DNA of 64,000 bases, taken from positions 18,906-82,905 of the IMG/VR virus record IMGVR_UViG_3300037478_000646; one strand, given 5' to 3'. This document shows, one piece after another, positions 19,325 through 32,383 of the stretch. Positions within the stretch are counted from its first letter, which is position 1. Each line of letters opens with the position of its first letter. The notes beneath the pieces are model-generated. The model was not told where the DNA came from. It worked only from the letters and a program-made list of their open reading frames with translations, and ran no database searches. A program made the translations under genes and the position numbers. The stretch comes from a virus. Its lineage: Duplodnaviria > Caudoviricetes.

Positions 19325-22300
19325 CTATAGAAGTTCAGGCACGTACAAATCGCTGAGCTCGGCATTCTCGCCGTCCTCAAGCAGGCGGCGCTTGATCTCC
19401 GGCCAGTCCCGGCGCACGTCTTCATAGCTCGGCAGCTTGGCCTTGCGCATTCGCTCCATGAACATTTCGTGGATGACCGGCACGGCTGCTTCCAGCTCAT
19501 CGAGAACCGGCTGTGTTTCGAGCGGCTTCTTCTGCGCCCAGCCTTCGACCTGTGCGGCGATCAGCGCGTTGCGCGCCTCGCGCATCTGGATGTTGGCCAG
19601 GATTTCCATCGCGGTGCGGCGCTCGCGCGGCCGGACCGTAATGCGCTCGTCATCCTCATCTTCGAGCCGGTTCAGATTAAGCGTCTTGCGCAGCTCGTTG
19701 GCGATCGAGACGACTTCCTCGGCGCGGATCAGCGGATGCAGATCGCGGTATTTGGCGTTGCGCCGTCCAGTCTGCGTTGCATGCAGGATGGCATAAGCCT
19801 TCTGATCATCGTCCAGCGATTTCAGATACTCGGACGCGGCCAGCGGATCGCGCGCCTTGTTAATATAGTATTTGTACCCGTTCGCCGCCGTCGCGAACTT
19901 GCCGGTGTTGCGCCCGATCAGTTCCCAGAAGTGACCGACCGATTGCGCACCGCGCGGCGCTTCCAGGCTGAACCGGCGTCCGATGATCGCATCGAAGACA
20001 TCTTTCGTTGCCGTGCCGGGATCGATGTAATTGCCGGTCAGCGCGTCCGTGCCTTGCAGGAAAGCCCGCCCGTAGGACGCCCCGAATCCGGTGATGAAAT
20101 GATCGATATGAGCCGGCGAGACATTGATCTGCCGGCCGAGCATTTTCCCGAATTCGGAGGCATAGGCGTTGAACTGCAGATGCGGCGGCAGCGCGCGCAG
20201 ATGATCCGCCACGATCTGGCGTTCGGTGAACGAGTCGTAATTGAACGCCAGTTCGATCGGCACTTTGATGCCCGGCACGTCAGTTGGCGGCAGGACGATA
20301 TGTTGCAATCCGTCAACGAACCGCTCCATTGCAAGCGGATCATCCTTCAACGTATATTCGAGCGTGCGTTCCATAAGATTCGAGAAGAACGCCAGTTCGA
20401 ACGGCTTAGGAATGCGATACCATTCGCCATCGACCTTGAAGATCCAGTGCGTCGCGCGCATGTAGCTCGAAAATTCTTCATATTCCTCATCATCCTGATG
20501 CAACACCCAGATCGCCGCACCGATCAGGCCAACTGCAGCCACCTTGGCCCAGACCTTTGCCGCCAGCGGCAACTGGCGCCGCTCAGCAATGCTGAGCGGC
20601 TGGCCTCTCCGGCTCTTGATATAGGGCGAGATCGCATCGCGGATGATCCTGTCGTTGTTCACCTTACCGCGTAGGCCGCGAATGCCGCGGTCAAGCCCTT
20701 GCAGCGCGGCGTTGAAGAACGGAATGATCCGGCGCATGGCCAGCATCTTCGAACCGTGACGGCCGAAATCGATATAGTCCCGCGCCGCATAAGCTGCCTC
20801 GATCGCCGCTTCGTGCTTTGACAGACCGTCCCTTTGCGCGCGGTCATAGGCTTTCCTGAAAACGCCCAGGCGCGTGCCGGTTTCCGTGAATTCTGTTATG
20901 CGCAGGATGTTGGTGACCGGCGCATCGCGGAAATAGATGCCGCGGCGCTTGCGCAGATCGAGCACTTCCTGCTTGATGCGGGCATTGTGCAGCGTGGCCG
21001 TGTTGGCCCCGCCCATGATGCCGCCGACGCTCGAATAGATCCGGCCGATATCGCTGGCAGTCTTGTCATCATAGATACCGCGAATGCCGGACACGAACGG
21101 CGTGAACTCATCAGCAAGTATCCAGGCCGAAACCTGATCACGGATAAAGTTGGCAAAGATGAAATCCGGCGAGGCCGTGATCGCCGTGCGCAGGATCGTA
21201 GCCGGCAGTGCCAGCATCGAGACATACCACGGCGTTATTTCCTGCCCGAGCGCCAGGATCGCATTCAGCATGTCCTTGCCGAACTGCTGATCCGCCAGCC
21301 GGATCGGAACGCGCTTGCCATCTTCCCACAGATAGACGATTGCCTCGCCCTTCTCGGAAACTTCGCCCGCGCGCCAGATCGTCGTGATCGCATCTTCGCC
21401 GATCAGCCCGTCAACCGCCTGCACCATGATCTGCAGATCGGCCGGGTCCACGCCGGCTTCCTTCGCCGCCAGTTGCAGCGCTTCCTGCACATTGACGCGC
21501 GTGCCCTGCATTTCATGGGACGGAATCCGCTCGGCGAATGAGCCGCCATCCGGGCCGGCCGCCGTCGCCAGCGCATCGAGCGCCTTGATCGCATCGTTGC
21601 GCGCGATGATCATGGATGTGTCGTATGTGTCCTGCACGATGGATTCGAGCGGACTGATCACATCGCGCTGCGAGCCGCGGAACCGGCGCAATATGCCCTG
21701 CTTGTCTGGCCGGGCCGGAACGCCGCTGTGAACCTGGCCGAGATCGGCGCGGTCGCGCAGCACCGGCACGTAATCCGGCCGCCCGAGCAGCGTGTCGTAA
21801 ATTTCCTGACTGATCAGCCCGGCCGCGAGCTTCTTGGCCAGCATGTTGTTCTGGAACTCGTACAGCATCTGCGCGGCCTGCTGGAACCCGGGATAGGCGC
21901 GTTCAAGCTCGGCGATATTCTGGAGATGCTCGGACTTCTTCACCTTGTCCGGCAGGGCGTCCAGCTCGCCATTAAAATACCGGTCCCATTCGCGCACGAA
22001 GCGGCGCGAGGCCAGATAGCTGTCGAACCGGTCCTTGGCCTCGCTCTGCCATTGCGACCGGCTCTCGCCGCCGAACGCCGTCACCAGCGCTTCATGGAAG
22101 GACGGCCCGGCCGGATCGAGTTCGTGATAGGGCCGCACGCCATGCTGCAGATCCATGTGGCCGGACGCATAGCCGTCGCGCGCGAGGCGCATCAGCTTGT
22201 ACGGATCATTGACGGCCTTGATCGTCAGCCGGGCATCGTTCGGCAGATTGAGGTTCTTGCGCGCAACGGCCAGTAGGCCCTCGACCGTCTGCTTGATCGG

Positions 22301-25300
22301 ATGCAGATCGTCGATGGTCCATGTGTAGAGCCGTTCCACAAAGGCGTCGATCGTGTTCCAGACCTGATTGTCTTCGATGATGCGCCGGAACTTGGCCATC
22401 TGCCCGCCCGCCCGCGAAACGATATTGCTGACGATGACGCCCGCCGACGGAGCGGCAAGCCACTGCTGATAACCGGTCCGGATTTCGGTCAGCGTCTTCA
22501 TCGTGCGCGGATCGTTCTGGCGCAGGAAAGCTTCGAACGCCTGCTCGAACCGTAGCGCCGTGCGCGTGCTTGCCGCCGGATTGGTGACATAGCGGCGGAA
22601 CCATTCCGCAAAGCCCTCAGAGAGCGCGTCAGGGCCGGGAGAGGCCAGCGGCGTCAGCTCCGCAGCGTGCTGCTGCTTGATGGCGTCCAGCGCGCCCTTG
22701 TGCCGCCCTTCAAGCGCATGCCCGCCCTCATGGGCCAGCGTGTCGAGCTCGTTCAGGACGCGCAGCCGGATAACGCCGGAGACGGTGTTGTAATGCCCGC
22801 CAAGCCGCCGCCCGGCTGCCGCGGCCTGACGCTTCAGCGCCGAGCTTAACCGGCCCTGTCTGACCGTCAGGCCGAGACCGAGATTGAAGCGGCGCACCAT
22901 CGTTGCGAGACTTTGGCCGGGCCGGTCAAGGCCGGGCTGCGCCACGCGCGCCGGGCTGTCCGCCATCCGGCCCGCCGTTTCCAGCATCGGCTTGGTGACG
23001 TTCTCGATTTCTTCGACCAGCGCGCCGAACGGTCCGTCCCGGTCGCCGATCCTGCCGCTTGCCAGATCGGCGAAGACATCCTCGGCCGCGGCCCAGCCGC
23101 GCTGCATCAGCGCATTGCGGATGCGCTCATAGAACAGCCGGATGCGCTCGAACAGGCGCTCGACGATCGTGCCGGGCTGCTGCTGTTCGCCGCGCATGTA
23201 GCGCTGGAACGCCATGGCGATGGCTTCCTCGATGATGTTCTCATCGGTGGCGGGCTTGCCGTACACGCGCTGATAGTCGCGGATCTCCGGCACGTCGAGC
23301 CAGCCCTGCGTTCTTGCCGCCGCCTTCAGCACATTCCACTCACCGGGCGTGAACAGGCCCATCGTGCGCAGCGCGTGCAGCGATTCATGATACGCTGTAC
23401 CGATCGGGTCGAGCGCATTGCGAGCGATGACCATCAGGAGCTTTTCGCGGTCGAAATAGCCCTCGATGATAGGCTGGCGCTCATTCGGATCACGGCGGAT
23501 CGTCAGCGGCTGGCCTTCGAGCAGCGAAGTGCGCATGGCGTCGGTGATGCGGAGGAAGGAATTGACTTCAAATGCTCCAGCATGCTTTTCGCGTTGAGCT
23601 TCAGCAACCATTTCGGCATGAAGACGATCTTGCTCATTCCGAAGACCTTCAAGACGCGTCATTGCATCATCAAAGCCAGCCTCGCGTCGAGCCATCGGGC
23701 GAAGTTCCAATTCTTGCAGAGGTTCCATTTCGGCAAGCAAAGTATTCCACCGATCCAATAGTTCTTGGCTTGGTGTAGCTGGCCTCACCTGATCCTGTGA
23801 ACGCTCCATAAGACGCACTTCTTCTACCCTCCCTCCCCATTTCTTCGTATATTTTTTCAGGAAGCTACCGATCTTCTGATCGTACTGGACGGAGAGAGCT
23901 TCGGCATCGCCGCCGACGGCCTTGGCAATCTGATCGCTCCGCGCCCATGATACGGCGTCATAGCCGTTTTCAGAGGCGTAGAGCAGAGCGCGCTTTAGAG
24001 CCAGTTCGAGCCACAGGTCGCCTTTGAAGGGGGCGTCGGGCATCGGTAGCAGACGAGTTTGGATCAGGTTATCACGAACCATCGTCCGACTCATGCCCCT
24101 TTCCAAGGTCGTAGCGGCGGCTTCAAGCGCTGGACGAGCGGCGATCACGTCTGCATCAGATGCATTCGTCTCTATGTGGTCGCGAATGCGCGCTGCAATA
24201 TCTGTCGGAAGTTTAGCGCCTTCATCGGACTGGTCATAGATTTTCGTTGCGATTTCTACTACATTCTGACCTGATTTGGCATAGCCTTCTCTTCGCCCGC
24301 GCTGATGCCCGGTCGCCTGGATTTCATTGATAAAGAAAATCCGCTCGCCATTCGGGCCGATCCTGTCATCAGCCCTGAAATGCACGAGCACCGGCCCGCC
24401 GAAATGTGGCTCGCTGTATTCCCAGCCGGGCAGGAGGATTTTAAATTCGCGGTAGTTGGTTCCGCCGGGGACTTTGTAGCCGGAGAATTTCGTCGACATT
24501 TCGTCGGCACCGGATCGCTTCGCATATGCGCCAGCAGCGAAATGTTCAGCCTGCGATAGGCTTTGCGCCGAATTAACTAAATTCCAATCACCATCATAAA
24601 CATCAAAGAAGGTAAAATCATCGCCAAGACCGTCTGGTGTCACGCCCTCAACAATATGATAGGTGTCTTCGGGAAAGCTGGCTTCCCATGCTCGCCCTGT
24701 CGGTATTGAAATTCCATCCGGAAGATTGCTTTCGATGCCGCTAATATCGCTGAGTTCGCGCATAGCCGGTGGCTGCGCAGACGCTTCGCCACCAAGAACC
24801 TTCTCATCCAGCACCACCTGATGCGCTCTCATGAACGCCAGCACTTCATTTTTCGTGAACCGGTCAAGCTGGATCTGATCCGATGCGAACCCGGCCTCGA
24901 TGGCCACGGTCACATAATCGTTCTCATCGGCAAAATCGTAATCCTGCTCGACCTGTGCAACCGTGCTCAGGCTTTCATCAGCCAGATAAGTCTTGGCGGC
25001 GACGATCACGCGGTCTTCATAGGTTGGCTCTGTCAGCCATTCCCGCAGCCCCATCCAGTCCAGCTCGTCCTTGCGCACGCCGGGAGCCTTGGAGATCATC
25101 GACCAGAATTGCTCGCCTGTGCCGCGCTCCTGCTTCAGCTGCTCGGCAGCGCGGATGGCTGGTGAATAGAAGCCGCGCAGGGAAAGCATCTGATTGATAG
25201 CACCCTGCCGTTCCTCGGCAGATACAGGCTCGCCGTTCTTTTTCGTGATCTTGACGAGGCTGTCGTCGAAAATTACGATGTTACGAGTGCCGTCTCCGGT

Positions 25301-28300
25301 GTCGCGTGAGCCTTGATCAAGGTAGCGTATGCCACTTATTCCTTGACTTTTCAGTAGTTTTGATACATCTTCTCTATTATCAAGATGACCCAGAAGTTCT
25401 CCGACATGGTCGAACTCACTTGCCCTCAATGCGGCACTAAGTTTTTCAGACACGCGTTCTATGTTGCTTTGCACACTCGCATGTTCTGCAGCGGCATCTG
25501 CTATGGCAACTATCGCCGAAGCGGATCTTTCGATGCGAAGGGGTACAGAGTCACTTCCATCGACGGCAAAAAGGTCAAGGAACACAGACTCATCATGGAG
25601 GCTGCCCTCGGGCGCAAGCTTCTTCCCAGCGAGAATGTCCACCACATCAACGGGAATAAGACCGACAACAGACTGTCTAATCTCAGGCTCATTGAGCACA
25701 GAGCGCATAGCCTTGACCATAATCCGACGCGATGGAGTATCGAGACCGCCGTATCCCTCCTTGCGGAAGGCTGGTCGCAACGCAAGGTCGCCAAGCGTCT
25801 CGGCGTCAGTCGCCAGTGCATGGTCCAATCTTTGAGAAGACGCGGCTTTTTGTAAAGCAGCCTTCACCTTCTCGCTCTGCTTCGATAGCGGCAAATCCCA
25901 ATCCAGCAACTGCTCTGGCTCAACGTCGATCTCGACTTCGTAGAGAGCGCCCTGTGTGCCGACATCGAATATCCCATCATCGATTGCGTCGATAATCCGG
26001 TACGCATCGTTTATATCGGAATAGGGATTGTCAGCGCCTTGCTCGGCATATTGCGCCAGCCCTTGACGGGCGGCTTTCAGATCCGAGAGATTGCGGCCAA
26101 CAATTTGCGTGATCGCATGATTTCTCGGCTGGAACGGATACCCGTTGATCGTCATCGTCTGCGCAGAAAGGTTGTCGCGATACGTCCCCGCAACCATCTC
26201 ATTCTCGGCAAAGTACAATCCGTGCCCGAATGCCTGCGCACCTTCGCCGGTCCCGATCCGGTCCATTGAGAACCGATCAAAATCATGCGGCGAGCCGTGA
26301 AAGCCGCGGATCGAGAGCATTGTCGGCACGCTGAAAAACCCGCGGCGGCGCGGCGACAGCGTTTCCATGAACGATGGCCCGCCGCCCGTATCAGGCAGCT
26401 CGATCCATTTATTGCGGCGGAAGAAGTCCGCAAACCGCTCCGTCTGGACGTTCTCGACATACAGCGCTTCCAGACCATCGGCGATGGCGATGTCCCGTGA
26501 TGCTTCCAGCATTCTCCGGAACGCCCCGCGCCCGGTCTGCTCGACCTCGACAGATGCAATATCCAGCGTGTTGAGCATCACATTGCTATGCGGCGAGGGA
26601 TGCACGGCGCGGCGCACATAGACGCGGAACCCTTCGCCGTTGATCCAGGCGTTGCGACGGCCGCTTTTCAGGAAGTCCGTCAGCTGTGTCTGCCAGTCGG
26701 CAAGCCCCTGCGGCGTCAGCGAAAGCTGTTCGCCGTTGATGCCGAGCCCGCCGAATATGGCGTCCTGAATGGACTTGTACCGCACATAGGATTCCGCCAG
26801 CACGGTTTCCTCATACAGCGCCGGATCGGCGTTGCGGATAGCCTGGAACGTCTGTTCGTCAAATGGGCGGACATCGTTCTGCAAATAGGCAACGCCATGT
26901 GATTCCATGTCGGATGCTATCCAGTCGGCCGTGTCGGCTTCGATCTTGCCGTCTTCGCCCAGGCGCAGGATCAGGCCCTGCATGCGCTCGATCAGCCGAA
27001 GCACGTCATCCATGGTGTAGGTCTTGCCGTCATAGGCGTCGATCAGCTTTTCCGGATCGAGCCGGACCGCATCATAGCCGGGCTTTGCGGCAACTTCCGG
27101 GTGCTGCTCGATGATGCCGTCGAGCAGTTTGATGACCGTCTCCGTTGCATCGGCCATCCTGACATAGCCGCGCGCCTGGCCTTCCAGATTACGCGGGCTG
27201 TCCGGTGCGCGGCGACGTAGATCAAGATGGGCTTCGGCTGCCTCGCGGAACTCCATGACCTTGGGAACCAGCGCGGACCGCAGAGCTTCTGCGCCATATT
27301 CCTGAATTTTCTTGATGATGTCGGTTTCGGTGTATTCGAGCGACACATGCACATTGCTGCGATGTCCGGGAATATCAGAAATGCTCACGCCAAGGTAGCG
27401 CGTAACCGGCATGCTGCCCAAAGTTTGCACAGTCATGTCTGGCCAGTCTTTCATGCCGGCGCGCACGGCGCTGCGGATCACATCAAGATGCTTCGGCCGC
27501 AGTCCGACAACCTGCCGCGGGTCCCATTGCTGCGACCGGTCGATATCCTCCATTTCCGGCGGATAGGACTGCCGCCGAGCTTCGGGCGACAGGGTGCGCC
27601 ATTTCTCGGCCAGCCGCGCCTCGGCTTCCCCGGCGATGCGCTCGTAAGCGTCCCGCTCAGTGTTCGTGACCGCAAATCCGGAGATGCCCTTGTCGATGAA
27701 GTTTTTCTGCTCGGTCAGGGCGTCACGGATCTTTTCCAGTTCGCCAACGATGTTACTGCCCGGCCTGGCATTGGCGATCTGGTGATTGATCTCGAACAGC
27801 GCCGCTTCGAGCCGGACCGTGTAAATTGCCTCGTTGCCGCCCGGCGCGAACCCTTCATAGTCCTGAATGAAATGCTGGATCTCGTGAACAAGCGTGTCGA
27901 ACAGCGCATTGATGTCATCGGTGGCATTGACCTTGATGCCCATCCGCGAAGCCGACCCGCTCGGGCCGCCGAACTCGGCCTGCTGGATGCTGACCGGCAG
28001 ATTTTCCATGAACGGATAGGCGGCAAAGAGTTGCGGCGCGCGCAGCAGCTCGCCCAGCGTGCCGTTGAACGAGTAATAGGATTCGGTCCCCTCGCCGAAC
28101 ACGGCGCGCACGGTCCTGTAGCGCAGCCCGTTCTTGCGGTTGCGGAGCAGGCCCTTCATGCGCTGCAATTCGGCTTCGCTCAGATTGGTTCTGCCGCCCT
28201 CGGCAAAGAATTCCTCCATGGCCGCGACCCGGCGCTCCGGATCGCCCCGGCCCTCCATCATGAAACGATGGAACAGGAACCCGAATTCCGTCTCGCTGCC

Positions 28301-31300
28301 CGGATCGTCCTGAAGCATTTTCAGGCGATACTGGTTGCTGTCGAGCGCGAACCGCCATTCGCCGTCAAAGCCGCGGAACCAGCCGGTCTGCTCCCATACA
28401 TTGACGGGATCAGCTCCCTGCTCGATCATGGCCTGCGCCTGATCAAGCGCGGTCGTATCGGCGATTGCCGCCTGCTTGCCGGCGAAGTTGAAAACGATAT
28501 TCGGATCGTTCGGATCGAAGGTGCCGCGGTTGCCGATGGCGGATTTGATCTGGGTGGGCTTGAACGCTCCATAAGTTACTTCTCCACCCTCGATCATTTT
28601 GATGCCGTCAAAATCGAGAATGGAAAAGATCTCATCGATTGCGGCCGTACCGTCCTGCCCGAAACGCATTTCGGGCTCGTACCAGAAATCATGACGGCCA
28701 TAATGCGGTCCGCTTTCTTCACGGCGGCGCGCTTTATGGATAATATCGACCAGATCATTGATGCGCGCCATTTCGGCTTCAGGCATCACGCGGCCTTGCC
28801 CGGCTGCCTGCTCGACCATGGCGTCAACCATTTGCCTGACCGTCACCGTACGCGGCAATCCCATGTCGGCATCAAATGGGCGTTCGATCTTCATGTAAAG
28901 AGGGAGAATATTACCGCCGCCGTCCCTGTCATAATTGCGCATGGCGGCATAGTCGGCAGGCAGTTCGATCCCGGTGCTAGCCCATGTAATGCCCTGAAAA
29001 ATCCTGATGTCTTCAGCCGTCCCATGATAGACGATCAGCGGCCGCCCATTCTCGTCAACCACCACGGAATCCCCGAACCAGCGCTTGAACGCTTCGGACT
29101 GCGTGATCGGCGTCACACCTTCGGCATTCAGCAGGATGTTCGGCGCGATCTGCGTCAGCGTAATCCGGTCCTGTATCTGCACCTGCACGCGCTTGCCGGC
29201 CTGTCCCAGAACCTGGGATGTCGCGCGCTGTATGGCATCGTCAAGCTCGTTGACGATCGTTTCGTCCGTCAGCGGCTCCTGCTCCTGCATGAAGGCTGAT
29301 GACCGCCCGGCTGACGCCCGTGCGCGCGCCCAGCCGTCGTACAGGCTGCTGAACCTCTGCTGCACTGCCTGTGCGGCCCTGGCTCGCGAACGACGATCCG
29401 CGGAGGGCAGGCCGCCCATGAAGTCCACCGCTACATTGATCGCTTCGCGAGCGGGCAGGCGCTGCAATTCGGCGACGATCTCACGGCTTTCCGCCAGCCA
29501 TGCATTCATATCGCCATTACGATCGCCGCGATGGAACAGCGCATTCAGATTGTCGGCAATGATCTCGGCTTCCGGCGACAGGCTTTCCACCGGCTCGACA
29601 ATTGTCTGCGGGGCGGGTGCGGCGGCTTGCTGCTGCGCGGCAACGATCTTGCTGGCGATCTGGTGCTTGTTGTCCCGCGACTTGACCTGCACGCCGCGCT
29701 CGCGCGCCAGATTGGCCAGGTCCGGCTTCTTCATGCGCATCAGCGAGCTGACGGTTTCCGTCTGTGCGGCTGGCGCTGCGGCAGCAGTCGGTGCGGCTGT
29801 ACTGGCTTGCGACGCTGGCGCGGCAGTTGGCTGACTGACCGGCAGACGCCCACCGCGCAGCATGGCTTTGGCCTGTGCGATCTGCTCCGGCGATGCTTGT
29901 CCGAATTCTGTTGGCGCGATATAATCATCGCCATACCGGCTTTGCTCGAAAATCGACCTGGTCGAACCGTCCGGCTTGAAGCGCTCTTTGAAATCGTTGA
30001 GAATATTTTCCTTCGTACCGGCTGTCGAAATGCCGGTCTGGCGCGCGACTTCCTTCAATTCTGTCATGTTCAGCGCCGGCAGCGCATCATAGGCAACGGG
30101 AAGCGTATTGCGGATCTGTGATGTCTGACGCGCCGGCCGGGCCGCTGCTTCACGCTTCTGCCGTTTCGGCATCGCCGCCAGCAGCTCATCCAGTCCGCCG
30201 ATCAGATCCGGCGCCTGTTCGCTGACGATCTCGCGGAGCCGCGCTGTCTGTTCGTCGGTCAGGCCGCGTTTGGCCATCATGGATGCGACCTCGGCGATAT
30301 TGTCGCCGCGCAGCGTCATTTCCTCGATGACGTCAAGCGTATCTTCGCCGGTCCGCACGCGTTCGATGATCTCGGCGCGATGATCGCGCGGCATGCGCAG
30401 ATACAGATCGCGAAATCCCGTATCGCCATATTCCTGATCGGCCGCTTCGATGTCCGGCAGCACCATGATCTGCTCATCATGCGCCAGATTGGTTTCGTAA
30501 ACGCGCTGATCCTCGGCTTCAAACGCAGCCGTGTCCTGTTCCTGCTGGTCCGCTGGCACGATCCGTTCGCCGGAGATCGCGCGCTGCACCAGATCGAAGA
30601 CGTCTTCAGGCGTCGTCACAGCAGGCTGGTCCGGCCCGCTCTCTTCCAGATAGCCGGCTTCAACCAGCTGCTCGCGCATCTGATCGGCGCTCAGTCCTTT
30701 CTGATTGATCAGCCCCGGATAGCGATCGGCGTCCAGCCCGGCCAGTTCGCCGGATGGTTTCAAGCCGCCTTTGGATCGAACGAATTGGAGAACGTCCGCG
30801 CCGCGCTGCTTCCGGCTTTCGGCGTAGGTCGGAGCCTGCACGATCTCTTCCGGCGCGGCGGCTTGCTGATCCGCGCCCAGCCGCTCTTCCATGGCCGTCG
30901 TGCGGATTGGCTGCATCCGGAAGAACTCGGCGAATGGATCGAGATCTTCCTTGGTTTCCTGCACGACCTGATCGCGCGTGCGCGGGCGGGTAAACTCCTG
31001 GCTGACGCCGCCGACCGTGCCGAACCCCGTGCCGCCGACCATGCCGGCCATGGCGGCTTCGCCGATCCGCTCGCGCTGCGCGACAATGCCGTCCTTGGCG
31101 TTGCGCATGATCTCGACGAAAGACTGCTCGCCCTGCGCCGCCGACGTGCTGGCGATAATGATCGTTTCTTGCAACGCTTCCGTAATGCCCTCACGGGTTG
31201 CGCCCTTGGCCATCTCGGCCCCGACGCGGCGGATCATGTATTTCGCCATCTCGCGCTTGGCGTTGCCGGTCAGCTTCTGCATGATCGAGACGGGGACCAG

Positions 31301-32383
31301 CGCATCGAGCGCGCCGACCATCGAACCTGCGATGTAGGAATATTTTTCCAGCATCTTCGGATCGGTGACGCCGACGGCTTCCAGCTCGTTGCGCACCTCG
31401 CCGATGCCCATGCTCATCGCGGCGAGCCCCGCGCCGGGAATGCCGCCGATCGCGCCGCCGGCAATGATGCCCGTCGTCGATCCGCCCGCCTCGCCAAGCT
31501 TGGCCCAGAAATAGTCCATGAAGTCGTTGAAGGATTCAACGTCGCCGAACTGGTTGACCCGCGGCGGCGCGACCTTGGCGCGTTCCAGCTCGGACAGGTA
31601 CTGGACGAATTCACCGATCCGGCCCAGCGTTTCGGATTCGCTGGTCTCGCCATACTGGCGCAGCGCGCCGCCAAGCATCGACGTCGCGCCCAGCGTGCCC
31701 TGTGTGAAGCCCTTCGAGATCTCGGTCAGCCCCTTGCTGCGCTCGGCGATCTGCTCCTTGTTCTGCGTCTTCTCGGCTTCGATGAACGCGCCCAGCTCCT
31801 GCGAATAGCCGTTCTGCACCTTCTGGCCGCGGGCATAGAGTTCACGGATCGTGTCATCTTCGCTGACGACGGTGATCGCGTCACGGCTGTCCTCATCGGA
31901 TTTCTGCTGTGCATCGCGCTGCTTCAGGCGCTCGAATAGCCCCTGAAACATCATGTCGCCGGTCAGGTCGTCGACAAGCGTTTTTGTGCGCGGCGCGGAA
32001 CCCGAGCCGGCCGGCGCGGTTTCTGCATGCTGGTCGTACTGGTCGAAATAGTTCACGCCCTGCGATTCAAGCAGGTTTTCAGGCTGCTGCGGCGTGCGCG
32101 CGCTGATATCTTCTGGATAGGGCGTAAAGCTGCCGTCGCCCTGCGGATCGAGCGCCCATGGATAGTTCGGATCTTTCACGTCGCCGTCGCGGAACCGCAG
32201 TTCGCCTGTCTGCATCTGCTTGCGATAGTCCAGATCGTCCGGATTTTCCGTCGGTCCCCAGTTCTCGAAGTTCTTGCGCAAATTTCGGCTCTTGTCGATC
32301 GGAGGCTGGATAATGCGACGGCGCTGTTCTTCCGGCGTCAGCTCGGGATCGTCTTCGATTTTCAGATTGGGGAATGTTGGCAT
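19325..32383 (-). CDS. Giant polyvalent internal virion/ejection protein (4352 aa)
   Basis: SAP/Rho-N-like repeats; ART-like domains (FKRWFGDS..PLIVYHGT; GFHGSPHDF..GHGLYFAE); LPD23-like WEQTGWFRG; zincin motifs HEIQH, HESLH, HEGGH; GNAT-like segment; LPD38-like C-terminus; last of three ejection genes. Confidence 0.9.
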   Translation of the reverse strand: MPTFPNLKIEDDPELTPEEQRRRIIQPPIDKSRNLRKNFENWGPTENPDDLDYRKQMQTGELRFRDGDVKDPNYPWALDPQGDGSFTPYPEDISARTPQQPENLLESQGVNYFDQYDQHAETAPAGSGSAPRTKTLVDDLTGDMMFQGLFERLKQRDAQQKSDEDSRDAITVVSEDDTIRELYARGQKVQNGYSQELGAFIEAEKTQNKEQIAERSKGLTEISKGFTQGTLGATSMLGGALRQYGETSESETLGRIGEFVQYLSELERAKVAPPRVNQFGDVESFNDFMDYFWAKLGEAGGSTTGIIAGGAIGGIPGAGLAAMSMGIGEVRNELEAVGVTDPKMLEKYSYIAGSMVGALDALVPVSIMQKLTGNAKREMAKYMIRRVGAEMAKGATREGITEALQETIIIASTSAAQGEQSFVEIMRNAKDGIVAQRERIGEAAMAGMVGGTGFGTVGGVSQEFTRPRTRDQVVQETKEDLDPFAEFFRMQPIRTTAMEERLGADQQAAAPEEIVQAPTYAESRKQRGADVLQFVRSKGGLKPSGELAGLDADRYPGLINQKGLSADQMREQLVEAGYLEESGPDQPAVTTPEDVFDLVQRAISGERIVPADQQEQDTAAFEAEDQRVYETNLAHDEQIMVLPDIEAADQEYGDTGFRDLYLRMPRDHRAEIIERVRTGEDTLDVIEEMTLRGDNIAEVASMMAKRGLTDEQTARLREIVSEQAPDLIGGLDELLAAMPKRQKREAAARPARQTSQIRNTLPVAYDALPALNMTELKEVARQTGISTAGTKENILNDFKERFKPDGSTRSIFEQSRYGDDYIAPTEFGQASPEQIAQAKAMLRGGRLPVSQPTAAPASQASTAAPTAAAAPAAQTETVSSLMRMKKPDLANLARERGVQVKSRDNKHQIASKIVAAQQQAAAPAPQTIVEPVESLSPEAEIIADNLNALFHRGDRNGDMNAWLAESREIVAELQRLPAREAINVAVDFMGGLPSADRRSRARAAQAVQQRFSSLYDGWARARASAGRSSAFMQEQEPLTDETIVNELDDAIQRATSQVLGQAGKRVQVQIQDRITLTQIAPNILLNAEGVTPITQSEAFKRWFGDSVVVDENGRPLIVYHGTAEDIRIFQGITWASTGIELPADYAAMRNYDRDGGGNILPLYMKIERPFDADMGLPRTVTVRQMVDAMVEQAAGQGRVMPEAEMARINDLVDIIHKARRREESGPHYGRHDFWYEPEMRFGQDGTAAIDEIFSILDFDGIKMIEGGEVTYGAFKPTQIKSAIGNRGTFDPNDPNIVFNFAGKQAAIADTTALDQAQAMIEQGADPVNVWEQTGWFRGFDGEWRFALDSNQYRLKMLQDDPGSETEFGFLFHRFMMEGRGDPERRVAAMEEFFAEGGRTNLSEAELQRMKGLLRNRKNGLRYRTVRAVFGEGTESYYSFNGTLGELLRAPQLFAAYPFMENLPVSIQQAEFGGPSGSASRMGIKVNATDDINALFDTLVHEIQHFIQDYEGFAPGGNEAIYTVRLEAALFEINHQIANARPGSNIVGELEKIRDALTEQKNFIDKGISGFAVTNTERDAYERIAGEAEARLAEKWRTLSPEARRQSYPPEMEDIDRSQQWDPRQVVGLRPKHLDVIRSAVRAGMKDWPDMTVQTLGSMPVTRYLGVSISDIPGHRSNVHVSLEYTETDIIKKIQEYGAEALRSALVPKVMEFREAAEAHLDLRRRAPDSPRNLEGQARGYVRMADATETVIKLLDGIIEQHPEVAAKPGYDAVRLDPEKLIDAYDGKTYTMDDVLRLIERMQGLILRLGEDGKIEADTADWIASDMESHGVAYLQNDVRPFDEQTFQAIRNADPALYEETVLAESYVRYKSIQDAIFGGLGINGEQLSLTPQGLADWQTQLTDFLKSGRRNAWINGEGFRVYVRRAVHPSPHSNVMLNTLDIASVEVEQTGRGAFRRMLEASRDIAIADGLEALYVENVQTERFADFFRRNKWIELPDTGGGPSFMETLSPRRRGFFSVPTMLSIRGFHGSPHDFDRFSMDRIGTGEGAQAFGHGLYFAENEMVAGTYRDNLSAQTMTINGYPFQPRNHAITQIVGRNLSDLKAARQGLAQYAEQGADNPYSDINDAYRIIDAIDDGIFDVGTQGALYEVEIDVEPEQLLDWDLPLSKQSEKVKAALQKAASSQRLDHALATDAETLGDLALRPAFRKEGYGGLDTPSRRIMVKAMRSVLNEPEIRQSVVGLIPVDVVDILAGKKLAPEGSLHDESVFLDLFAVDGSDSVPLRIERSASAIVAIADAAAEHASVQSNIERVSEKLSAALRASEFDHVGELLGHLDNREDVSKLLKSQGISGIRYLDQGSRDTGDGTRNIVIFDDSLVKITKKNGEPVSAEERQGAINQMLSLRGFYSPAIRAAEQLKQERGTGEQFWSMISKAPGVRKDELDWMGLREWLTEPTYEDRVIVAAKTYLADESLSTVAQVEQDYDFADENDYVTVAIEAGFASDQIQLDRFTKNEVLAFMRAHQVVLDEKVLGGEASAQPPAMRELSDISGIESNLPDGISIPTGRAWEASFPEDTYHIVEGVTPDGLGDDFTFFDVYDGDWNLVNSAQSLSQAEHFAAGAYAKRSGADEMSTKFSGYKVPGGTNYREFKILLPGWEYSEPHFGGPVLVHFRADDRIGPNGERIFFINEIQATGHQRGRREGYAKSGQNVVEIATKIYDQSDEGAKLPTDIAARIRDHIETNASDADVIAARPALEAAATTLERGMSRTMVRDNLIQTRLLPMPDAPFKGDLWLELALKRALLYASENGYDAVSWARSDQIAKAVGGDAEALSVQYDQKIGSFLKKYTKKWGGRVEEVRLMERSQDQVRPATPSQELLDRWNTLLAEMEPLQELELRPMARREAGFDDAMTRLEGLRNEQDRLHAEMVAEAQREKHAGAFEVNSFLRITDAMRTSLLEGQPLTIRRDPNERQPIIEGYFDREKLLMVIARNALDPIGTAYHESLHALRTMGLFTPGEWNVLKAAARTQGWLDVPEIRDYQRVYGKPATDENIIEEAIAMAFQRYMRGEQQQPGTIVERLFERIRLFYERIRNALMQRGWAAAEDVFADLASGRIGDRDGPFGALVEEIENVTKPMLETAGRMADSPARVAQPGLDRPGQSLATMVRRFNLGLGLTVRQGRLSSALKRQAAAAGRRLGGHYNTVSGVIRLRVLNELDTLAHEGGHALEGRHKGALDAIKQQHAAELTPLASPGPDALSEGFAEWFRRYVTNPAASTRTALRFEQAFEAFLRQNDPRTMKTLTEIRTGYQQWLAAPSAGVIVSNIVSRAGGQMAKFRRIIEDNQVWNTIDAFVERLYTWTIDDLHPIKQTVEGLLAVARKNLNLPNDARLTIKAVNDPYKLMRLARDGYASGHMDLQHGVRPYHELDPAGPSFHEALVTAFGGESRSQWQSEAKDRFDSYLASRRFVREWDRYFNGELDALPDKVKKSEHLQNIAELERAYPGFQQAAQMLYEFQNNMLAKKLAAGLISQEIYDTLLGRPDYVPVLRDRADLGQVHSGVPARPDKQGILRRFRGSQRDVISPLESIVQDTYDTSMIIARNDAIKALDALATAAGPDGGSFAERIPSHEMQGTRVNVQEALQLAAKEAGVDPADLQIMVQAVDGLIGEDAITTIWRAGEVSEKGEAIVYLWEDGKRVPIRLADQQFGKDMLNAILALGQEITPWYVSMLALPATILRTAITASPDFIFANFIRDQVSAWILADEFTPFVSGIRGIYDDKTASDIGRIYSSVGGIMGGANTATLHNARIKQEVLDLRKRRGIYFRDAPVTNILRITEFTETGTRLGVFRKAYDRAQRDGLSKHEAAIEAAYAARDYIDFGRHGSKMLAMRRIIPFFNAALQGLDRGIRGLRGKVNNDRIIRDAISPYIKSRRGQPLSIAERRQLPLAAKVWAKVAAVGLIGAAIWVLHQDDEEYEEFSSYMRATHWIFKVDGEWYRIPKPFELAFFSNLMERTLEYTLKDDPLAMERFVDGLQHIVLPPTDVPGIKVPIELAFNYDSFTERQIVADHLRALPPHLQFNAYASEFGKMLGRQINVSPAHIDHFITGFGASYGRAFLQGTDALTGNYIDPGTATKDVFDAIIGRRFSLEAPRGAQSVGHFWELIGRNTGKFATAANGYKYYINKARDPLAASEYLKSLDDDQKAYAILHATQTGRRNAKYRDLHPLIRAEEVVSIANELRKTLNLNRLEDEDDERITVRPRERRTAMEILANIQMREARNALIAAQVEGWAQKKPLETQPVLDELEAAVPVIHEMFMERMRKAKLPSYEDVRRDWPEIKRRLLEDGENAELSDLYVPELL
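25385..25855 (+). CDS. HNH homing endonuclease nested antisense within the giant ORF
   Basis: CPQCG..F...FCSGICY zinc finger; GYRV...[35 protein letters not shown] HNH core; C-terminal HTH [16 protein letters not shown]. Confidence 0.85.
   Translation: [156 protein letters not shown]

Follow-up and report, generated by a model that had tools for sequence, protein, structure and literature searches.

An HNH endonuclease gene, probably mobile, nested antisense and codon-aligned within a giant polyvalent protein gene of a tailed phage

Homing endonuclease genes are thought to persist inside other genes only by way of introns or inteins, and otherwise to lie between genes or to split them. How, then, might such a gene occupy a coding sequence that has neither? 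The window analyzed here, a 64,000-nucleotide stretch of a complete IMG/VR record (IMGVR_UViG_3300037478_000646; Caudoviricetes; 82,905 bp, flanked by direct terminal repeats), raises this question because it contains one copy of an HNH endonuclease gene on the plus strand, wholly within the minus-strand gene of a giant polyvalent protein. The sequence of this gene and of its relatives points to a mobile, selfish-type element that probably lives "ambigrammatically" on the antisense strand of the giant gene, where it would be expressed, cut insert-free alleles, and home.

The nested HNH gene and its host protein

A sequence-only reading of this DNA had described, inside a minus-strand open reading frame (ORF) of 4352 amino acids (aa), a plus-strand ORF of 156 aa with a zinc finger, an HNH core, and a helix-turn-helix (HTH) domain, and the ORF list, a Pfam match, and a structural model all bear this description out. 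The HNH frame matched Pfam HNH_3 (PF13392; E value of 5.4e-12, 45.6 bits, above the cut-off of 24.8) and more than 20 HNH families of PHROG, and a tblastn search with the HNH protein yielded matches in 140 phage records. The four zinc cysteines (C13, C16, C35, and C39) are invariant in the 19 nested homologues described below; the catalytic His/Asn/His of the beta-beta-alpha-metal motif is present, with H67, H86, H87, N95, N99, and H108 likewise invariant in these homologues. Matches of the C-terminal region to Pfam HTH_23 and HTH_7 both fell under the cut-off, and structural matches of this region were of the Resolvase/Fis-type HTH (Z about 6). The AlphaFold model of the HNH protein (mean predicted local distance difference test score [pLDDT] of 87.6) is composed of a Zn ribbon, a beta-beta-alpha core, and a three-helix HTH, and its top structural match is the homing endonuclease I-HmuI (1u3e), with a modest Z of 7.6 and a root mean square deviation of 2.4 Å over 68 core residues; Foldseek gave this pair a probability of 0.95. 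Sequence searches of the PDB with the HNH protein and with a profile found no HNH structure. On these grounds of sequence and modeling, the plus-strand ORF is confirmed as an intact Zn-ribbon, HNH_3, and HTH endonuclease gene with predicted nuclease activity, and the second ATG (25406) is likely its real start because the N-terminal sequence that it gives, MVELTC, agrees with the M-x(3-5)-C pattern of the family.

The codons of the HNH ORF and of the giant ORF all start at coordinates congruent to 2 modulo 3, so that the two frames are codon-aligned, and neither frame contains a stop over the overlap, as had been stated from the sequence alone. The same reading had placed the overlap in the variable loop of the second ART-like domain, and this location holds as well: the overlap corresponds to host residues 2177 to 2333 and is bounded in the host protein by PLSKQSEKV and VSKLLKSQGISGIRY. 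The high-scoring segment pairs (HSPs) of homologue BLASTP searches stop at host residues 2174 to 2186 and restart at 2320 to 2344. Insert-free alleles, which an alignment of homologous giant proteins had been expected to reveal, were found; most homologous ART-PolyVal domains have a loop of about 18 to 45 variable residues at this position, versus about 157 in the window. Because just a short, variable loop is present there in most homologues, the alignments indicate that the HNH-bearing segment is an insertion in the loop between the halves of the second ART-PolyVal domain. The estimate of about 157 passenger residues is correct for the extent of the overlap and too high for the net insertion, which amounts to about 130 to 145 residues relative to insert-free homologues because the HNH ORF runs at each end into host-like codons: its stop codon, TAA, lies antisense to a conserved host Leu codon, and its first ATG (25385) lies antisense to a host-like His codon.

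All 31 invariant columns of a 50-sequence alignment are kept in the window's ART-PolyVal domain, before as well as after the insert. As modeled by AlphaFold, the N-terminal half has pLDDT values of 81 to 95, save one 10-residue block at 74, and the C-terminal half has values of 73 to 94; the values of the passenger segment, the antisense reading of the HNH gene, are mostly 35 to 60, and in the host frame the passenger is modeled as a low-confidence loop. The passenger peptide had no family match in Pfam (E ≤ 1) or PHROG. A Foldseek search with the model of the ART domain plus passenger (25124 to 26356) returned nothing at E ≤ 0.001, the only rows being weak ART-fold matches (tankyrase, diphtheria toxin) and the cyanophage A4 pre-ejectosome chain 9k3a_B, which was the top row (E value of 0.03) and which gives a weak hint from modeling that the giant protein may be an ejection protein. 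The giant gene is part of the structural/late module, where it separates internal virion protein genes, which together with terminase, portal/adaptor, and tail genes lie upstream of it, from the endolysin gene downstream. The features of the locus are collected in Table 1.

TABLE 1 Features of the nested HNH locus and of its host gene, in window coordinates
Feature	Position	Strand	Size or basis
Giant polyvalent protein gene	19325..32383	-	4352 aa; ORF list; ART-PolyVal x2, LPD23, LPD38
C-terminal half of second ART-PolyVal domain, about residues 2334-2400 (...VSKLLKSQGISGIRYLDQGSRDTGDGTRNIVIFDD)	25184..25384	-	HSPs resume; pLDDT
TATTAT, -10-like hexamer 25 nucleotides upstream of ATG 25406 (weak candidate)	25375..25380	+	Read from sequence; formed by host codons
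HNH endonuclease ORF	25385..25855	+	156 aa; Pfam, PHROG, AlphaFold
Passenger segment, giant protein residues 2177-2333	25385..25855	-	Antisense reading of HNH gene
Probable true HNH start, second ATG	25406	+	149 aa; family alignment
N-terminal Cys4 zinc ribbon (C13, C16, C35, C39)	25421..25504	+	4/4 Cys invariant; two strands and a helix in model
HNH core, residues 66-108 (EH..., VHHINGNKTDNRLSNL, ...H)	25580..25708	+	Pfam HNH_3 over residues 67-109
C-terminal three-helix HTH DNA-binding domain, residues 118-152	25736..25840	+	Helices modeled at 119-127, 132-139, and 143-152
N-terminal half of second ART-PolyVal domain, about residues 2020-2176, end ...DWDLPLSKQSEKVKAA	25856..26326	-	BLASTP HSP ends; pLDDT

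Recurrence of the layout and selection on the two frames

A BLASTP search with the passenger peptide found matches inside 11 of 119 other giant proteins, and the DNA of three of these 11 contains full-length, intact HNH genes on the opposite strand, all of them codon-aligned. A scan of IMG/VR that began from the HNH protein, and was hence blind to nesting, returned 80 loci; together with the three passenger-derived loci, it gave 20 further nested copies in 18 contigs, all antisense and codon-aligned, with zero host stops. Most of the host open frames span from 1,000 to over 2,800 aa; at one locus (L064) a truncated HNH match lies within a short antisense ORF of 247 aa. The host ORFs that were checked encode polyvalent proteins with ART-PolyVal, LPD38, LPD22, RadC, or InPase domains, and one host ORF (L020) had no Pfam match. 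In a maximum-likelihood tree, 21 of the 22 copies classed as antisense (all except L064) form one group with two free-standing genes, L011 and L016, with a Shimodaira-Hasegawa-like approximate likelihood ratio test (SH-aLRT) support of 85. A search of large proteins for antisense HNH genes, suggested by the sequence-only reading, was carried out with a profile of 19 passenger peptides: 2,135 cluster representatives matched at E ≤ 0.001, 459 at E ≤ 1e-10, and 92 at E ≤ 1e-30 (1.84 billion searched). Among the best 150 matches, 124 are proteins of at least 1,000 aa, with a median of 2,348 aa, and several contain two or three copies. As judged from these searches, the antisense, codon-aligned nesting of HNH genes is widespread in giant phage proteins.

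When the two genes are antisense and codon-aligned, only the codons TTA, CTA, and TCA of the HNH gene can create a stop in the host frame. The window's gene has none of these among its 28 Leu and Ser codons; with the codon usage of free-standing relatives at equal GC content, about 4.2 would be expected (probability of zero, 0.011). Taken alone, the open frame of the window's copy is only suggestive, and the argument for selection rests on the clade, because a single GC-rich copy of this kind is not very improbable. Across the nested copies, there are again no TTA, CTA, or TCA codons among 16 to 37 Leu and Ser codons each, even at a GC content of 0.39, where 10 to 11 would be expected and the probability of zero is about 1e-6. 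Free-standing relatives have 1 to 15 stops in this phase, and L011 and L016, the free-standing members of the same clade, have three each. The claim that the element keeps its antisense frame open is thus supported by the clade-wide absence of the three codons.

Selection was compared in both frames, as had been proposed, and the comparison singled out the HNH frame. In the closest nested pairs, substitutions at HNH codon positions 1, 2, and 3 number 44, 12, and 63, and there are 41 amino acid changes in the HNH protein versus 61 in the passenger. The HNH alignment has 14 invariant columns, including all of the zinc and catalytic residues, versus 1 in the passenger alignment, where the sole conserved block is the shadow of the EHVHHINGNK motif. 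The host-frame GC content at third codon positions (GC3), 0.73 in the giant gene, falls to 0.50 in the insert, where that of the HNH frame is 0.68, so that the GC3 signature switches to the plus strand inside the insert. Because of the codon-position substitutions, the invariant columns, and the GC content by codon position, we conclude that the HNH protein is under purifying selection and that the HNH frame is the main target of selection; the AlphaFold models show it to be the folded frame as well. The host frame is selected at least for remaining open.

A related arrangement was observed in a different clade of HNH genes. Two of these (L034, 3761 to 4378; L048, 1673 to 2242), with GC contents of 0.30 to 0.38, have no TTA, CTA, or TCA codons (P of 1e-6 to 1e-4) and are each covered by a co-extensive antisense ORF of 185 to 191 aa that has its own ATG and touches or overlaps the adjoining minus-strand genes at their stop and start codons. 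From its position, this antisense ORF looks like a "shadow ORF" that would keep translation of the operon running, rather than an insert-bearing host protein.

Mobility, expression, and competing explanations

The insert positions fall into at least six site classes; at least two sites in ART-PolyVal domains are repeatedly occupied, and several other sites are occupied as well. Site A, which is the window's site, follows PLSxQSExV(R/K)xxL and is occupied too in six other proteins at the window's codon position (P0035, P0126, P0131, P0134, P0137, and P0138), and site B, within the N-terminal half of the domain, is occupied in nine proteins. The distribution is sporadic, with most homologous host domains insert-free. 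Two genes (at L003 and L012) carry two copies each, and the second copy at L012 (5330 to 5761) is decayed, with an internal stop and no zinc finger, inside a host frame of 2,299 aa that is still open. The HNH genes of L002 and L005, which share flanks and the same host site, are 70 to 76% identical in DNA to that of L001, which occupies a different host site; the similarity among the three begins sharply about 25 nucleotides upstream of the ATG, at TGGGTATGGTAYTT, and ends past the HTH. This pattern is that expected of the invasion and decay cycle of a homing element, with cleavage and homing as its putative steps.

The block TGGGTATGGTAYTT is itself conserved about 10 to 25 nucleotides 5' of the HNH ATG in L001, L002, L003 (second copy), L005, and L012; it coincides with the 5' edge of the mobile unit and, translated in the HNH frame, gives WVWYF. 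The block is similar to an extended -10 promoter; other copies have forms related to it (GGGTATTTT, TGGTACAAT, and TGATATAAT). The ART-PolyVal domain of P0138 (residues 140 to 262) has, together with its site-A passenger, a stretch of about 50 additional residues at site B, which has no match to the HNH passenger and is possibly an insert of another kind.

Possible expression signals were seen in other nested copies. Of 22 nested copies, 10 have an extended -10-like motif, TGnTAnnnT, in the roughly 90 nucleotides that precede the zinc finger, versus 4.5% of background windows, the copies not being independent of one another, and a Shine-Dalgarno sequence is present in several of the other nested copies. 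For the window's gene, the hexamer TATTAT is a weak candidate promoter element. It was not reported by a sigma-70 consensus scan of the locus, which took in sigma-70 promoters and terminators and gave one weak site about 100 nucleotides upstream, no more than in shuffled sequences.

The claim that a selfish-type HNH gene sits in a coding gene with neither intron nor intein also fared well. Rfam had no match at E ≤ 1 on either strand of 24800 to 26500; group I and group II introns were rejected on this basis and because the insert is about the length of the coding sequence, with no room for a ribozyme. An intein, which would be recognized by Hint/splicing blocks, an N-terminal Cys or Ser, and a C-terminal His-Asn followed by Cys, Ser, or Thr, was likewise rejected: the host-frame peptide contains no Hint or intein domain (Pfam, E ≤ 1), and the junctions, ...KAA/LQK... 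and ...LLGH/LDN..., lack intein residues. A repeat search at the insert found short chance repeats only, with no target-site duplication and no flanking or inverted repeats, and the absence of inverted repeats rules out an invertible segment.

These observations suggest a mechanism in which an HNH clade inserts on the opposite strand, codon on codon, into genes for giant polyvalent (internal virion or ejected) proteins of phages. Because the element uses none of the codons TTA, CTA, and TCA, the ribosome would read the host gene straight through, and the giant protein would gain a poorly structured excursion of about 140 to 157 residues in a surface loop between the halves of its second ART-PolyVal domain, which would nevertheless retain all of its conserved residues. 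The nuclease would be expressed from its own promoter on the antisense strand (weak in the case of the window's copy) and would cut insert-free alleles near the site during co-infection, whereupon the element would be copied in by recombinational repair. Copies with a closed antisense frame would be lost, since the host protein would be truncated.

Several points weigh against this account. The window's copy has neither the TGnTAnnnT motif nor a Shine-Dalgarno sequence. The nearest insert-free allele (P0004) is just about 56% identical, and therefore a recent gain in this phage cannot be shown; a megablast search of 24000 to 27200 against GenBank phages gave zero matches, so that there is no close relative by which to date the insertion. 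The joint probability of the open frames over the nested copies, about 1e-53, ignores their shared ancestry. For the window's copy, an open antisense frame of 156 codons in a phage of 60% GC has a probability of 0.18 to 0.26 under host codon usage, and the giant gene has other, meaningless antisense ORFs of 400 to 690 aa in the same phase.

The last two figures are also what would favor a coincidence in a GC-rich genome, in which an HNH gene was inserted, or misassembled, in a stop-poor phase and the open host frame was never selected. The giant gene contains plus-strand ORFs at 19469 to 20674, 27227 to 29299, and 30380 to 31939 (401 to 690 aa), each codon-aligned with it; the antisense ORFs of this gene other than the HNH gene (235 to 690 aa) had no Pfam match, as expected from the earlier remark that they lack recognizable motifs, and were rejected as genes because they agree with the chance expectation for a codon-aligned antisense frame in GC-rich coding DNA. 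Such long ORFs are expected because the host seldom uses TTA, CTA, or TCA (about 30 times in 4,195 codons). At the clade level, however, coincidence is already contradicted: the nesting-blind sample of HNH genes yielded the 20 further nested copies, all of them open and the low-GC ones improbably so, whereas free-standing relatives do contain stops in that phase; a chimeric assembly is opposed by the same layout in independent assemblies from many metagenomes. We consider coincidence the least probable of the explanations. Scarcely more probable is that no passenger-bearing giant protein exists because the insert is removed, or the host gene split, by unrecognized splicing, bypassing, or internal initiation. 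Nothing positive speaks for this, except that the authors of the study of the ShiLan element likewise could not exclude removal in their case (PMC11855218), and the findings on introns, ribozyme space, and inteins given above all stand against it; moreover, were the segment left untranslated, nothing would favor an open host frame, which is nevertheless kept in all 22 copies.

A domesticated element is a somewhat stronger alternative, although we consider it unlikely. The HNH protein, the passenger loop, or both would then serve the phage and no longer be part of a purely selfish homing element, for instance with the nuclease excluding co-infecting relatives or acting on host DNA, or with the passenger as a functional linker. 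The retention of the catalytic residues over deep divergence and the very wide occurrence of the layout are consistent with such a role. So is the composition of the passengers, in which bulky hydrophobic residues are less frequent than in the antisense translations of GC-matched free-standing relatives (0.218 versus 0.277; P of 8e-4, uncorrected for phylogeny), a difference that may reflect a possible second layer of selection, on the composition of the passenger peptide. On the other side are the sporadic distribution and the mostly insert-free homologous domains, the many different sites and the genes with two copies, the decay of the second copy at L012 inside an intact host frame, and a passenger with a single invariant column and a low-confidence model. 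A mobile, selfish-type gene therefore remains the explanation that we favor. We give about even weight to a broader proposal, that a whole lineage of HNH homing genes may be specialized for antisense, codon-aligned life, with its own short promoter, a ban on three codons, a loop-like passenger, and active homing to at least two hot spots in ART-PolyVal domains.

Relation to known systems and significance

The closest precedent is the ShiLan domain, a hidden, out-of-frame HNH insertion in the DNA methylase gp65 of a mycobacteriophage (Arsenault, Gosselin, and Gogarten 2025, PMC11855218). Like the window's gene, it is an HNH gene with a zinc motif and no detectable ribosome-binding site that lies in a phage coding gene with neither intron nor intein, and the host frame has no stop across the insert and a product predicted to form a loop; the HNH proteins of the two elements are homologues (36% identity, E value of 7e-15). 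Unlike the window's gene, which lies on the opposite strand and is codon-aligned, the ShiLan gene lies on the same strand with a one-base (+1) offset, as confirmed here for L085; its host is a DNA methylase rather than a giant polyvalent protein, and ShiLan-type same-strand elements form a separate clade from the window's HNH gene (support of 97). The words antisense, reverse, complement, and opposite strand are absent from the text of PMC11855218, and literature searches on antisense or nested HNH genes and on polyvalent proteins with homing endonucleases returned only this study as a precedent for a hidden HNH gene. The comparison of the sequences indicates that the layout described here is an antisense, codon-aligned variant of the recently described hidden-HNH insertion, and that this variant is new and almost undescribed.

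Same-strand hidden HNH genes were also observed at five loci that belong to one clade, L085 (ShiLan), L087 (Cylindrospermopsis phage Cr-LKS3, DNA methylase g59), L057, L061, and L081; the host frame there is shifted by +1 and has no stop for over 200 codons on either side. The ShiLan-type layout thereby extends past mycobacteriophages, to one cyanophage and to uncultured phages.

With the free-standing HNH homing endonucleases of phages (I-HmuI-like; the mob genes of T4 and Aeh1), the window's gene shares the enzyme core, the sporadic distribution, and the phage setting, and free-standing members (L011 and L016) occur within the nested clade itself. In the "genes in pieces" case of Aeh1 nrdA, a free-standing homing gene reportedly divides the host gene into two ORFs. 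Unlike such genes, which lie between genes or split their host, the window's element leaves the host ORF whole and is read through. The best match of the HNH protein among GenBank phages (L086; Streptococcus phage Javan616, 1237 to 1863) is flanked by two ORFs annotated as "lysin", and from this arrangement a lysin gene may have been split there by a free-standing HNH gene. With intein- and intron-borne homing endonucleases, the nested copies share the colonization of conserved coding sites without destruction and the repeated occupation of the same sites; unlike in those systems, there is no splicing element in the window, and the host product is expected to retain the extra residues.

Ambigrammatic narnaviruses avoid stops in the reverse frame by banning three sense codons. 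Their reverse ORF is codon-aligned with that of the RNA-dependent RNA polymerase (for example, bioRxiv 10.1101/2020.12.18.423567). The window's HNH gene has the same phase and the same three-codon ban; the narnaviruses differ in being RNA viruses, and their reverse ORF spans the genome and has no known product. The window, by contrast, belongs to a DNA phage, in which a mobile gene of about 150 codons and of known family is nested and the "shadow" frame is the host gene.

Two proteins are encoded here on opposite strands of the same roughly 470 bases with no splicing element, in a layout found in hundreds of protein clusters. It offers a natural, testable system for the study of long antisense overlapping genes, which standard annotation pipelines discard, and it shows that gene callers overlook a whole class of mobile nuclease genes. 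The layout also accounts for odd, unalignable insertions in giant phage proteins, and it suggests that passenger-tolerant loops of such proteins could be mapped from nature. If the lineage is indeed specialized as proposed, homing genes would have in antisense nesting a third way of entering other genes, in addition to introns and inteins, with the same-strand ShiLan type as the sister strategy.

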